Shown here piece after piece: positions 1 through 4,383 of a stretch of 4,383 bases of DNA. This DNA comes from a virus (lineage: Duplodnaviria; Heunggongvirae; Uroviricota; Caudoviricetes), in IMG/VR virus record IMGVR_UViG_2778261156_000002; one strand, written 5' to 3'. The notes under the pieces were generated by a model, which saw nothing but the letters and a program-made list of their open reading frames with translations, had not been told where the DNA came from and searched no databases. The position numbers and the translations under genes were made by a program. The stretch's first letter is position 1; every line of letters starts with the position of its first letter.

Positions 1-47
1 GGTTTACCTGCACCGTCTTTCAGTACACCTGAAATCTTTACTGCCAT
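1..47 (-). CDS. stf: Side tail fibre protein, N-terminal fragment (first 15 codons; gene continues beyond window start)
   Basis: ATG at 47..45 on the minus strand preceded by a purine-rich GGGGTGA. Translation MAVKISGVLKDGAGK matches my recall of the N-terminus of lambda Stf (orf-401). Position immediately downstream of lom matches lambda gene order. Only 47 nt are visible, so the call rests on a short match plus synteny. Confidence 0.6.
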   Translation of the reverse strand, partial: MAVKISGVLKDGAGK

Positions 48-57
48 ATTCACCCCA

Positions 58-85
58 CAAAAAAGCCCGCCTGAACCAGCGGGCT
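58..85 (-). terminator. Rho-independent terminator downstream of lom
   Basis: Inverted repeat AGCCCGC (64..70) / GCGGGCT (79..85) with an 8-nt loop. On the minus strand the stem is followed directly by TTTTTT (plus-strand A-run 58..63... actually 59..64 region). It sits 27 nt after the lom stop codon. Confidence 0.6.
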
Positions 86-111: not shown

Positions 112-711
112 TCAGAACTTATAACCAACACCCACGATGAACCCGTCAGTGCGCCAGTCGCCACTGCCGGAGCCTTCATAAGCGACATCAATGGCCACCG
201 ATTCGGTCGGGTTAAACTGCACGCCAGCTCCCCACGCCAGAGACGTGTTGCTGTGGTGACCGTCATCACTTCCGGTCAGCACATCATGCGTTTTCCCCTT
301 GTTGTCAGTTACGCGGAGATAATCCCCGGAGAAAGTCGACACACGGCTGTAAGCCACACCCGCCATCGCATACGCGCTGAACCATTCATTCACGCGCACA
401 GACGGTCCCGCCATCACGCTGAACCAGCGGTTACGCACGGAATCCTCATGCCAGCGGGTATCGCTGTAATGCGTTTTTTGCTCATCTTCAGCGTTGGCAT
501 AACTGAATGACGTAATCAGCCCCAGCGTGTCCGTAAACTCATAACGGTATTTCACGTTAATCCCGTTCAGATTATCGCTGCCGGGAGCGTTCGTACGGGC
601 ATGAAGATACCCTGCGCTCAGTGTGGCCTGCTGCTCAGACGCCCATGCAGGCGCACCGGATACGGCCAGACAGATGGCTGCGGACAAAATGGCTGCATAA
701 ACTTTACGCAT
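112..711 (-). CDS. lom: Lom outer membrane protein (Ail/Lom/PagC/OmpX family small beta-barrel); prophage lysogenic-conversion 'moron'
   Basis: 199-aa ORF. N-terminal signal peptide MRKVYAAILSAAICLAVSGAPAWA with an AxA cleavage motif. Alternating amphipathic beta-strand pattern and a C-terminal ...GVGYKF ending in Phe, typical of outer-membrane beta-barrels. The sequence closely resembles lambda Lom as I recall it. Sits between J and stf as in lambda. Confidence 0.93.
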   Translation of the reverse strand: MRKVYAAILSAAICLAVSGAPAWASEQQATLSAGYLHARTNAPGSDNLNGINVKYRYEFTDTLGLITSFSYANAEDEQKTHYSDTRWHEDSVRNRWFSVMAGPSVRVNEWFSAYAMAGVAYSRVSTFSGDYLRVTDNKGKTHDVLTGSDDGHHSNTSLAWGAGVQFNPTESVAIDVAYEGSGSGDWRTDGFIVGVGYKF

Positions 712-715
712 AATT

Positions 716-721
716 ACCTCT
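716..721 (-). promoter_or_regulatory. Ribosome-binding site for lom
   Basis: Minus strand reads GAGAGG-TAAT-ATG, i.e. a Shine-Dalgarno-like element 4 nt upstream of the lom start codon. Confidence 0.5.
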
Positions 722-734
722 CGCTTTTCTGCAA

Positions 735-760
735 TAAAAAAGGCGCCATTTCTGGCGCCC
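735..760 (-). terminator. Rho-independent terminator downstream of J (between J and lom)
   Basis: Perfect GC stem GGCGCC (742..747) / GGCGCC (754..759) with a 6-nt loop. On the minus strand it is followed by TTTTTTA (plus-strand A-run 736..741). It lies 19 nt after the J stop codon. Confidence 0.65.
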
Positions 761-778
761 GTATTGGGGTTATAAAAT

Positions 779-3700
779 TCAGCTGATACTGATGCCTGCG
801 GTGGCTTTCTTCATCACCACAACCAGCAAATCGCTGATACTTGCTGTGGGATACCAGTCATTTACCAGCCATGCTGACACCGAAAACTCCAGCGTCATGT
901 GGCCGCGACCAGCTGGCATATCAATAACACCACTGTAAATCAGCGTATTATCCAGCGCGGTATGGTTATAAATTTCAGCACCGTTTTTCCGTACTATCAG
1001 GCGGCATGAGGAGTAGATATCAGTATGATCTTGCTCATGTTTAGCGCCACTGAATGCCACCGCCGGGATAACAATTTGCCGGTCAAACGGCTGATCGTCA
1101 TAAACCCTGACGGTAATGGTCCCTGATGGCCACCGCTCCGGTGCACGGGAGTCCCGGGGGAAAGCCTTACCCACTGTTTTGACAATATCACCTTCAATCT
1201 GGTTGGCTGACAGTTTCCCCTTAATCTGACAGTTCTCATTAATCGTGACATTGTTGAGCGTCCCGGCGTTCGCATTCACACTGCCACTGATATCTGCATT
1301 TTTAGCGGTCAGCTTTCCGTCTGATGTCAGGGAAAATACCGGAGGACTGCCACCGCTGGTAATGGTGGGGGCTGTCAGGCGCTTCAGGAACACGTCGTTC
1401 ATGAATATCTGGTTGCCCTGCGCCACAAACATCGGCGTTTCATTCCCGTTTGCCGGGTCAATAAACGCGATACGGTTAGCGGCAACCAGAAACTGGCTCA
1501 GCTTGCCTTCCTCCGTGTCCTCCATGCTGAGGCCAATACCCGCGACATAATGTTTGCCGTCTTTGGTCTGCTCAATTTTGACGCCCCACATGGCATTCCA
1601 TTTATCGTTAGCGTCCTTCCACTCTTTCGAAAACTCATCCAGTCTGCTGGCGTTATCCTCCGTCAGATCAACTTTTTCCAGCAGCTCTTTACCGAGATGG
1701 GATTCGGTTATCTTGCCTTTGAAAAAATCCAGGTAACCTTCCGCATCATCGCTCGCCCGACCGACGGCCTCCACGAATGCCGATTTGCCAACGGTGTTCA
1801 CACTGCGAACGTAAAAATAATAATCATGGCCCGGTTTGATATTGATACTGGCGGCTATCCAGTACAGTCCCGTGCCAAGGTAGCGGGCTGTGGTTTCAAC
1901 CTGCCTGATATCGGTAATCCGCGTTTCCGAGAACCAGAACTCAAACTGTACCGTCGGATCATAAGCCGCAAGATGCGGCGTGGCAGTTATCTGAAAATAG
2001 CCCGGCGTCAGCTCAATCCGCGACGGCGCTGCCGGGGCGGCAATCCGGAACGATACCGACGCCGGATCGCCCTGCTGTCCCCACACATTTACCGCCCGGA
2101 CCGTCAGCGTGTAACGCCCCAGCGCCAGTTGCCTGAAGCGGTATGTGGTTTCCGTCGTCCGGGCCGTGCTGACCAGCCGCTCACTGCCGTCATCCGCTGT
2201 TACGGTCAGACGGAGCAGGAAGTTCACGCCCTTCACCACCTTCGGCGTGTCCCAGCGCGCCAGCACCTGATATTCCCCGCTGTCTGCGGTGACTTCGGCG
2301 GTCAGGTGCTGCACCGCTGGCGGCGTGACACCATTCACCGTGCCGCTCTGGTCGCCGTCAAAGTGCGCCCCGTTATCCACGATGGCCTCTTTTTCCGGTA
2401 CATGCTGCACGGCGGTGATGGCATACGTGCCGTCGTCGTTCTCACGGATACTCACGCAGCGGAACAGGCGCTGGCGCAGCGTCGGCAGCTTCAGCCCCCA
2501 CACGCTGTATCCGGCAACGCCGTCAGGAACACGGCTAACTTTCACCTTCACGCCGTCGGTGACGGACTGAACCTCCACGCTGACCGGATTGCCACTTCCG
2601 TCAACCAGGCTTATCAGCCTGGTGCCGGAGGATGGCAGCGTGATTTCACGGTCGAGCGTCAGCGTCCGGGTCTGGCTGTTTACCGCCAGCACGCGCCCGC
2701 CGATGCTGATACCGGCATAGTCATCATCACAGATTTCAATGACATCACCCGGCACATGGCGAAGCCCTTCTGCGCCCACGCTGAAGTCCACGGTCTGCGT
2801 TTCCAGCAGTTCTGTTTTAATCAGCCACAGCCCGGCGCGGTGTGCCTGCCCCCGGCTGGTACAGCCAAAAGCATCCATCTTCGTGACGTTACGACCGTAA
2901 CGGGCAATGGCCTGCGTATCCTCCACAAGCTCTGTCGCCGTCTCCCAGCCGTTGTTCGGGTCAATCCAGTTCACCTCAACGGCATTATGGCGGTCTTTCA
3001 GGGCGCTGAAGCTGTAGCGGAACGGCGCGCCATCATCCGGCATCACCACATTACTGCGGTTATAGGTCCACACCTTATCCGACGGTCGGTCCTGCACGAA
3101 CGTCAGCGTCTGCCCGTTCCATACCGGCATACAGCGCATCGCCGAGCAGAAATCACTGAGCACATCCCACGCCTTGCGCTGTGTGGTCAGGTACGCATTA
3201 CAGGTGATGCGCGGCTCCGTACCGCCAAAACCGTCCGGCACTGACTGGTCGCAGTACTGGCCGATGACATACAGCGCCCATTTATCCACATCCGCCACAC
3301 CAAGACGTTTCCCCATGCCGTAGCGTGGATGGGTCAGCATATCCCACAGACACCAGGCCATGTTATTGCTGTATGCTGGCTTAAACGTTCCGTCCCAGAT
3401 ACCGCTGTATTGCCGCGTCTGCGGGTTATAGTTCGACGGCACCTGCAGAATACGCCCGCGCAGATGATAATTACGGCTCACCTGCTGGCTGCCGAACTGC
3501 TCCGAATCCACCCGTACGCCGACCAGTGCCGTGTTCGGGTAGCACTGTTTCACATCGATGATTTCGGTGTATGACGACCAGAGCGTTTTGTTCTGCAGCT
3601 GGTCTGTGGTGCTGTCCGGTGTCATCCTGCGCATCCGGATATTGAACGGTCGCGGCGGCAGGTTATCCACCACCACCGAGGCCAGATACTGCGACGTGGT

Positions 3701-4174
3701 TTTGCCCTTAATGGTGATGTCTTTTTCTGTCACCCAGCCACCGTTACGTTGTATCTGAACCAGCAGGCGGACTTCCGACGGATTCCGGTCACCCTTTGAG
3801 GTGGTTTCCACCAGTGCCTGCACACCGAAGGTAAAGCGCAGACGGTCGATGTTTGCAGACGTGATGGTCCGGGTGATCGGCGTGTCGTATTTCACTTCCG
3901 TACCCAGCACCGTCTCGGAACCGGAGGATTCAAATCCCTCCGGCGGTGTCTGCTCCTGCTCACCTGCCCGGAACACCACCGTGACACCGGAGATGTTGGT
4001 ATTCCCCTCACTGTCCAGCACCGGTGTACTGTTCAGCAGCACGCTTTTTAATCCATCCACCGGACCTTCAACCGGCCCTTCGCTGATGGCATCGATCACA
4101 CTCAGTAACTGCGTGGATTTCAGGTTATCCTTCGCTTCGCGCGGGATATGCCCCTTACTGCTGCCTTTACCCAT
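779..4174 (-). CDS. J: Host specificity protein J (central tail fibre / tail tip, receptor-binding protein)
   Basis: Uninterrupted 1131-aa ORF. N-terminus [34 protein letters not shown]... and most of the length match lambda gpJ (about 1132 aa) from memory. GGAG Shine-Dalgarno 8 nt upstream of the ATG. Flanked by I upstream and lom downstream exactly as in lambda. Confidence 0.96.
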
Positions 4175-4233: not shown

Positions 4234-4383
4234 TCAGCGACCAATCACCACAACCTGACCACCATCCCCTTCGTCTGCCGTGCTGATCTCCTGAGAGACC
4301 ACCCGCGACCCCACGCGCATTTCACCGTACAGAACGGGCAGAACATTGCCCTGGGCAACCATGTTATCCAGTGAGGAGAAATA
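4234..4383 (-). CDS. I: Tail assembly protein I, C-terminal fragment (last 49 codons plus stop; gene starts beyond window end)
   Basis: Minus-strand translation from the window edge is YFSSLDNMVAQGNVLPVLYGEMRVGSRVVSQEISTADEGDGGQVVVIGR*, with the stop at 4236..4234. This matches the C-terminus of lambda gpI as I recall it. It is missing from the ORF track because the start codon lies outside the window. Confidence 0.88.
   Translation of the reverse strand, partial: YFSSLDNMVAQGNVLPVLYGEMRVGSRVVSQEISTADEGDGGQVVVIGR

Follow-up and report, generated by a model that had tools for sequence, protein, structure and literature searches.

The stretch of DNA analysed here (the window; 4,383 nucleotides) carries a J gene that raises a question of host recognition. 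The encoded protein follows phage lambda gpJ closely along most of its length and departs from it at the C-terminal end, and the question is which outer-membrane receptor such a protein would bind. The first-pass annotation had held the C-terminus of J to be the determinant of host range, and rightly so. The C-termini of the natural variants 1A2 and A8, when placed on lambda gpJ, switch delivery to OmpC (PMC11338833). All genes in the window lie on the minus strand, and the order I - J - lom - stf is present, as for lambda-type J. The features are as follows.

4234..4383, minus strand: 3' end of the tail assembly gene I, with 94-95% nucleotide identity to lambda and named from the annotation of matching records.
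779..4174, minus strand: gene J (tip attachment or central tail fibre protein), an open reading frame of 1131 aa plus stop codon.
1255..4174, minus strand: lambda-like part of J (residues 1 to ~973), delimited by protein and nucleotide identity to lambda and comprising the hub domains, FNIII domains, helical shaft and beta-prism fibre.
782..1252, minus strand: receptor-binding end of J (residues 975-1131), in which an Ig-like receptor-binding domain (RBD) is preceded by a short linker.
782..1174, minus strand: full-length match to Pfam Ig_GpJ_C (PF12421), on J residues 1001-1131.
741..760, minus strand: terminator-like hairpin plus T-run in the J-lom spacer (8 pairs, 6 of them G-C).
112..711, minus strand: lom, encoding an Ail/Lom outer-membrane beta-barrel protein of 199 aa (Pfam Ail_Lom, E = 8e-124, full length).
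64..85, minus strand: terminator-like hairpin 3' of lom, from the terminator scan.
1..47, minus strand: start of the side tail fibre gene stf, whose translation MAVKISGVLKDGAGK... matches the lambda Stf N-terminus MAVKISGVLKDGTGK.

The stf gene extends beyond the window edge, with only its first codons inside. The two hairpins are labelled terminator-like only, because the number of sites in the terminator scan of the window was not above the shuffled expectation. J is intact: its 1131-codon open reading frame carries FNIII-A_GpJ, Phage-tail_3, Ig_J, Ig_J_second, Phage_Tail_Tip and Ig_GpJ_C in this order, each well above the cut-off and full length, and the lambda-type domain series is thereby complete in Pfam terms from the hub domains through the C-terminal Ig-like RBD.

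The window protein was aligned globally with the gpJ of NC_001416 (1132 aa) and identities were counted in 50-residue blocks. Overall identity is 89%, with a single gap of one residue. Residues 1-950 are ~97% identical to lambda (43-50 of every 50 residues), after which identity drops to 38/50 in residues 951-1000, 24/50 in 1001-1050, 21/50 in 1051-1100 and 11/32 at the end, the C-terminal ~155 residues being 43-46% identical. The initial description of J as nearly identical to lambda gpJ over ~980 residues, with a last ~150 residues that are alignable yet heavily substituted, agrees with this alignment, in which the boundary falls at residue ~974 and the divergent end holds one indel; the identity found there is far from the more than 95% that would speak against such a description. 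The protein strings then quoted, including the lambda C-terminus given as ...VMVIKKQALGISVV, are also correct.

At the nucleotide level, each 100-nt interval between gene I and about position 1255 of the window is 88-100% identical to lambda, with sparse mismatches, and below that position the mismatches are dense. The upstream boundary of the divergence thus lies at J residue ~974, the 100-nt intervals flanking the break being 91-100% identical on the lambda-like side and 45-65% on the divergent side. The divergence runs beyond the J stop codon, through the spacer and into lom, to about position 184, downstream of which identity to lambda is back at 94%.

184..1254, minus strand: non-lambda-like block, consisting of the J RBD, the J-lom spacer and lom codons 1-176, delimited by nucleotide identity (45-72% to lambda per 100 nt).

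The interval originally marked as divergent, 782..1240 (J residues 979-1131), therefore captured the C-terminus of J but fell short in extent, since the block continues past the J stop to ~184. The Lom protein shares 44% identity with its lambda counterpart and 94% with that of the Stx phage phi330. Because identity breaks sharply on both sides and the block continues into lom, it is an exchanged mosaic module of ~1.07 kb with sharp edges and not the product of gradual drift or chance variation; the view of the J C-terminus as a mosaic hotspot is borne out. The RBD would have been acquired through recombination as part of this module, together with most of lom.

The classes to which J ends of this kind belong were delineated by using the C-terminal 152 residues of J as the query in a translated search of phage genomes. 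RBDs that are 92-95% identical are present in PhiR46_1, many Stx2a phages, 2G7b and vB_EcoS-640R1, and the same class was found at the DNA level in VT1-Sakai and JLK-2012; the J proteins of WGPS2, the PPompW series, PhiR5_1 and PhiR55_1 also belong here, at the same level of identity. The members of this group share the I-J-lom-stf context with the window, whereas mosaic variation of the usual kind is seen in their N-terminal J parts and elsewhere in their genomes. About 62% identity was observed for Stx1a phages, phage 1717, 4A7, ev017 and PhiR47_2, 45% for lambda, and about 41% for 434, cdtI, WGPS6 and phiSTEC1575. Judged by these sequence comparisons, the divergent J end is a distinct RBD class (PF12421) and not a drifted lambda domain.

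The abundance of the class was examined in complete E. coli genomes. The 399-nt core of the RBD is present in 3,379 of 5,426 genomes (62%), usually in two copies, nearly all of them 90-99% identical. The lambda RBD occurs in 98 of the same 5,426 genomes, with identity never below 99%; the five records listed come from K-12, B and DE3 laboratory strains. Because of these counts, the window RBD is to be regarded as an ordinary natural E. coli form, the commonest in the prophages of this species, and the lambda version as the unusual one. About 1,535 records hold the Phi330/A8 class at 90% identity or more. The particular variant in the window, defined by an HEQDHTD hairpin together with R1090 and D1106, has only six database records at 99% identity or more. 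The hosts given in GenBank for phages with this RBD class are E. coli C, ECOR13 or O157, not K-12; among the PhiR phages, those with the window class have E. coli C or ECOR13 as host, while those propagated on K-12 carry a 434-type RBD. The PhiR phage paper deals with ManYZ and SNIPE only and holds no outer-membrane receptor data (PMC13190303), and the literature searched gave no receptor assignment for the J proteins of VT1-Sakai, the Stx2a phages, JLK-2012, 2G7b or the PhiR phages.

The structure of J residues 975-1131 was modelled with AlphaFold2 (pLDDT 83, pTM 0.75). The predicted structure is an all-beta domain whose PDB matches are the A8 gpJ 713 RBD in its closed and open states (9wca, 9wcb) and lambda gpJ (8xck, 8xcj), with TM scores of 0.80-0.86; the match to 9wca_F has a Foldseek E-value of 3e-19 and a TM of 0.84, and that to 8xck, a TM of 0.86, places the model in the fold of the lambda RBD. 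Most entries in the homologue set collected for the model alignment were fragments of genes, several with frameshifts within the RBD; these were excluded first. The resulting alignment has a conserved beta framework (GTITVR, DDQxFDRQ, YSxCxLxVxKNG, DMPAGxG and another motif) that is broken up by variable stretches. Such a pattern is consistent with the published account of the lambda RBD, in which four bottom loops of an Ig-like domain insert into LamB (PMC11101478). The variable stretches with a predicted role in receptor contact are as follows.

1124..1156, minus strand: loop R1007-S1017, the first variable RBD loop, different in sequence from lambda and four residues longer than in phi330/A8.
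1016..1054, minus strand: beta-hairpin F1041-I1053, the most variable part within the RBD class and the predicted receptor-inserting hairpin.
848..865, minus strand: loop V1104-P1109 (VNDWYP), the last variable RBD loop, which aligns with A1015-P1020 (ANNWTP) of phi330.

The assignment of contact residues follows an AlphaFold3 model of phi330 made by another group, in which the hairpin E953-S962 lies inside the OmpC barrel and A1015-P1020 at the OmpC rim (PMC12502783), and not the solved 9wcb complex. The hairpin F1041-I1053 aligns with the phi330 hairpin E953-S962 and is five residues shorter than in phi330/A8; residue 1106 is D, N or G within the class. Variation was counted over 125 core positions in eight database representatives of the class plus 1A2. 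Of the 23 variable positions, 10 fall inside the 13-residue hairpin F1041-I1053, a clustering with p = 1.5e-4 in a sliding-window permutation test. In a Fisher test, loops and strands did not differ significantly in within-class variability (p = 0.33), a result explained by the assignment of the variable hairpin to strand in DSSP. A clustering of this kind, as seen in the sequences, is what selection on receptor contact would produce.

The nearest characterised relative of the window RBD is the gpJ variant 1A2, known from a lambda chimera of Eligo Bioscience and the Bikard laboratory (PMC11338833; bioRxiv 10.1101/2025.02.28.640725). Brödel et al. replaced the C-terminus of lambda gpJ from residue 964 with those of the natural variants A8 and 1A2 (PMC11338833). 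In MG1655 without lamB and ompC, the A8 and 1A2 chimeras delivered DNA only when ompC was supplied on a plasmid (PMC11338833). The 1A2 and A8 C-termini were rebuilt here from the supplement DNA, which is recoded or diverged and was machine-read with indel errors, using frameshift-tolerant alignment. The window is identical to 1A2 at 133 of 146 readable positions (91%) of the last 152 residues, with no indels, six positions being unreadable and two more doubtful. The two share the RBD class, the loop lengths, the linker ...NNVTINENC... and the C-terminal strand, and the window RBD thus falls in the 1A2 class as delimited by identity of about 90% or more and the same loop lengths. They differ in 11 credible substitutions (Q983R, I984V, K985L, I997L, F1041L, Q1048K, D1049E, H1071R, R1090H, D1106N and S1129T, window residue first), and in their N-terminal parts, 1A2 being an engineered fusion to lambda residues 1-964 whereas that of the window J is natural and 97% lambda-like.

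The next relative, A8, belongs to the phi330 class, its sequence agreeing with phi330 J at 139 of the 147 positions that could be read. Compared with the window, the A8/phi330 RBD has the same three-dimensional fold (TM 0.84), 63% identity, and an identical linker and last strand, but its first loop is four residues shorter and its central hairpin five residues longer; by identity and loop lengths the window RBD lies outside this class. Phage phi330 forms no plaques when ompC is deleted, and complementation restores plaquing (PMC12502783). The PDB entry 9wca is A8 gpJ in the closed state and 9wcb the open state bound to the OmpC of EDL933. On the strength of the 1A2 chimera, the phi330 plaquing and 9wcb, the nearest characterised relatives (91% and 63% identity) both use OmpC, and by this analysis the J of the window very probably binds OmpC and not LamB.

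The proposal that the phage uses a different receptor or a different LamB allele is supported in its first part, through the 1A2 class and its use of OmpC in lamB-deleted cells, and finds no support in its second. A domain that still binds LamB, in an allele other than that of K-12, would fit the shared lambda RBD fold (TM 0.86 to 8xck), and LamB, OmpC and OmpF are all trimeric porins, point mutations in lambda J being able to switch it to OmpF (PMC11101478). The lambda RBD (8xcj, 8xck) likewise resembles that of the window in its Ig-like fold with bottom loops and in its placement, at the tip of a fibre with 97% identity. However, the two RBDs are 43-46% identical, the variable loops are not conserved, and by sequence and the four contact loops L1-L4 the window RBD lies outside the LamB-binding class, its loops being different, with one indel. 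Moreover, both the selection and the testing of the 91%-identical 1A2 were done in recipients lacking lamB, and it requires ompC (PMC11338833), and neither the window class nor the nearest classes have been linked to LamB. Binding to another LamB allele is thus very improbable.

FadL and LamB have reportedly been described, in older work, as receptors for some Stx2 phages, which would favour another outer-membrane protein such as OmpF, FadL or BamA as the receptor. The J of Gifsy-1, which binds OmpC, BtuB and OmpX (PMC12312913), would also be compatible with such a choice. Against it, both of the closest characterised relatives use OmpC, and the use of BamA is a feature of short-tailed Stx phages with an unrelated tail protein (PMC12502783); a receptor of this kind is very unlikely.

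Other J proteins were compared as well. The RBD of phage 434 is a homologous domain and 434 uses OmpC, but at 40-42% identity and with longer loops it forms a separate class, to which the window RBD, lacking high identity, does not belong. Gifsy-1 J, although an OmpC user, was considered as a close relative and set aside, as the identity reported between its C-terminal region and that of lambda is only 18%. A receptor-screen preprint concerns GpJ of the Drexlerviridae type and calls the lambda C-terminal domain not comparable (10.64898/2026.04.02.716166).

If OmpC is the receptor, its allele becomes relevant. A8 uses the OmpC of both MG1655 and EDL933, whereas 1A2 uses that of EDL933 and not that of MG1655 (K-12) (PMC11338833). 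Of 23 OmpC variants, three (G1, G2 and G40) do not support delivery by 1A2; with each of the remaining 20, delivery reaches at least 76% when the MOI is highest (PMC11338833). The E. coli NCTC9088 chromosome contains a 99.9% match to the window; matches to thousands of other E. coli prophages are at 90-97% and those to many lambdoid phages at 93-96%. The OmpC of NCTC9088 can be aligned to the EDL933 chain of 9wcb with no gap and about ten substitutions, while two indels of four residues each, in surface-exposed regions or loops, separate it from the K-12 OmpC (GFTS present and TIAG absent in K-12). By sequence, the lysogen would therefore have OmpC of the kind that 1A2 accepts and not of the kind that it rejects; this is circumstantial evidence from one genome, and it fits a 1A2-like use of OmpC by the J of the window. 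The probable allele range would be EDL933-type and most natural OmpC alleles, excluding the K-12 allele.

The window variant would probably behave like 1A2 despite the 11 credible substitutions. An OmpC binder with a range unlike that of 1A2, accepting K-12 OmpC too or a narrower set, is nevertheless possible, if somewhat doubtful; the cause would lie in the substitutions of hairpin 1041-1053 and at residues 1090 and 1106. Four of the 11 substitutions fall in predicted OmpC-contact stretches, namely F1041L, Q1048K and D1049E in the hairpin F1041-I1053 and D1106N in the loop V1104-P1109; the concentration of within-class variation in the hairpin is expected if the hairpin tunes allele specificity, and the related RBDs A8 and 1A2 already differ in allele range, A8 accepting and 1A2 rejecting K-12 OmpC. 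On the other side, the loop lengths are identical to those of 1A2, the loops of the host OmpC are of EDL933-type length, which 1A2 accepts, and there is no direct sign of a shift. The combination of HEQDHTD, R1090 and D1106 might even confer a new specificity within the class, directed to an OmpC group beyond those of 1A2 and A8 (such as G40) or to another general porin, which is unlikely.

The genomic setting bears on whether the domain is in use at all. The matching prophage of NCTC9088 occupies the Qin/ydfJ locus. In it, the portal gene carries an annotated frameshift, stf is broken and the side tail fibre genes are partial. It is conceivable, though the weight is against it, that J is a relic of a defective prophage, that the NCTC9088 copy may never enter a virion, and that the RBD has no current role in adsorption, its divergence being inconsequential. 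However, the J reading frame and all its Pfam domains are intact, the frameshifts may be assembly errors, and defective prophages donate tail modules through recombination to lambdoid phages that infect the cell, the RBD being a host-range cassette that is still usable. Such a reading also concerns the use of the domain and not what it binds.

Binding to OmpC being the preferred reading, we infer the receptor and the opening mechanism of the window J from its homologues; the fold, the sequence class, the module boundaries, the prevalence and the host OmpC allele are established in the present analysis. The last ~157 residues of J would form an Ig-like RBD with the lambda gpJ fold, of an allelic class other than that of lambda and shared with 1A2, VT1-Sakai, many Stx2a phages and most E. 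coli lambdoid prophages. The RBD trimer at the tip of the central fibre would dock on trimeric OmpC instead of LamB, its bottom loops (R1007-S1017, the hairpin F1041-I1053 and V1104-P1109) meeting the porin at its extracellular face. The bases of the RBDs would then spread, the beta-prism fibre would twist, the helical shaft would flip, the FNIII strings would be released and the tail tip would open. This cascade of fibre twisting and tail opening was worked out for lambda on LamB (PMC11101478), and because the fibre is 97% identical, the downstream opening mechanism should match that of lambda; the closed and open A8 structures imply a similar opening.

The RBD class of the window is of the OmpC type, very widespread and already described, and it has previously served to redirect lambda particles to OmpC in gene delivery to the gut. 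The value of the present finding is thus small as a discovery and lies in annotation: a near-lambda J in a lambdoid prophage should not be taken to imply the use of LamB, as the receptor is decided by the last ~155 residues of J, of which the lambda version is the rare one. Natural variants with changes in the contact hairpin provide a ready source of altered specificities for OmpC alleles and are useful for studying the co-evolution of prophage tail tips with porin loops.

Comparison with lambda revealed a non-lambda-like block in the window that exceeds the C-terminus of J, the tip attachment protein, and reaches into lom; terminator-like hairpins lie directly 3' of both genes.

184..1254: non-lambda-like block, comprising the J C-terminus, the spacer between J and lom, and codons 1-176 of lom
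741..760, minus strand: terminator-like hairpin directly 3' of J, with a G+C-rich stem followed by a T-run
64..85, minus strand: terminator-like hairpin directly 3' of lom, with a G+C-rich stem followed by a T-run

The window has no more terminator-like hairpins than expected from shuffled sequence. The window Lom is 44% identical to lambda Lom and 94% identical to that of phi330, a phage of the next-nearest OmpC-using class of receptor-binding domain (RBD). Despite this similarity in Lom, identity between the RBDs of phi330 and the window reaches only about 60-63%, so the RBD and lom are not always transferred as a unit. Antisense to J, a plus-strand open frame of 564 codons (window 1550..3244) is most likely a by-product of J codon composition and not a gene.

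The RBD class of the window, shared with the gpJ variant 1A2, was identified in 3,379 of the 5,426 complete E. coli genomes, with a median of two copies, and the phi330/A8 class in approximately 1,535 records at an identity of at least 90%. The LamB-binding RBD of lambda was found in only 98 complete E. coli genomes, every match being at least 99% identical, and its carriers among the matches listed are five records of laboratory strains. Several database J fragments of the window's class (P0021-P0023, P0030, P0042, P0044) carry frameshifts inside the RBD, around its first loop and the next strand, and may represent pseudogenised prophage copies or sequencing errors.

The host side was examined in E. 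coli NCTC9088, which matches the window at 99.9%.

NCTC9088 2236313-2280695 (L003): matching prophage, at the Qin/ydfJ locus
L006 (ompC region of NCTC9088) 7853..8956: ompC

This prophage may be defective, since the annotation gives a frameshift in the portal gene and the genes for the side tail fibre are partial; alternatively, indel errors in the assembly may be responsible. NCTC9088 OmpC has loop lengths of the EDL933 type, aligns without gaps to chain A of 9wcb (A8 gpJ with EDL933 OmpC) and is set apart from the K-12 protein by two indels of four residues each, in keeping with the published allele preference of gpJ 1A2. Records of PhiR phages (PV340545, PV340565, PV340571, PV340555, PV340559) were compared for host and RBD; the host named for those with the window's class is E. 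coli C or ECOR13, and those grown on K-12 carry a 434-type RBD, a pattern consistent with the finding reported for 1A2 that it does not work on K-12 OmpC.

Within the class, 10 of the 23 variable positions fall in a beta-hairpin at J residues 1041-1053 (window 1016..1054; permutation p = 1.5e-4), with variants including HEQDHTD, HEREHTD, HEKEHTD, HERENND, HERKNNN and HPRKDKE. This clustering of the within-class variation suggests that the hairpin is under diversifying selection against OmpC loop variants.
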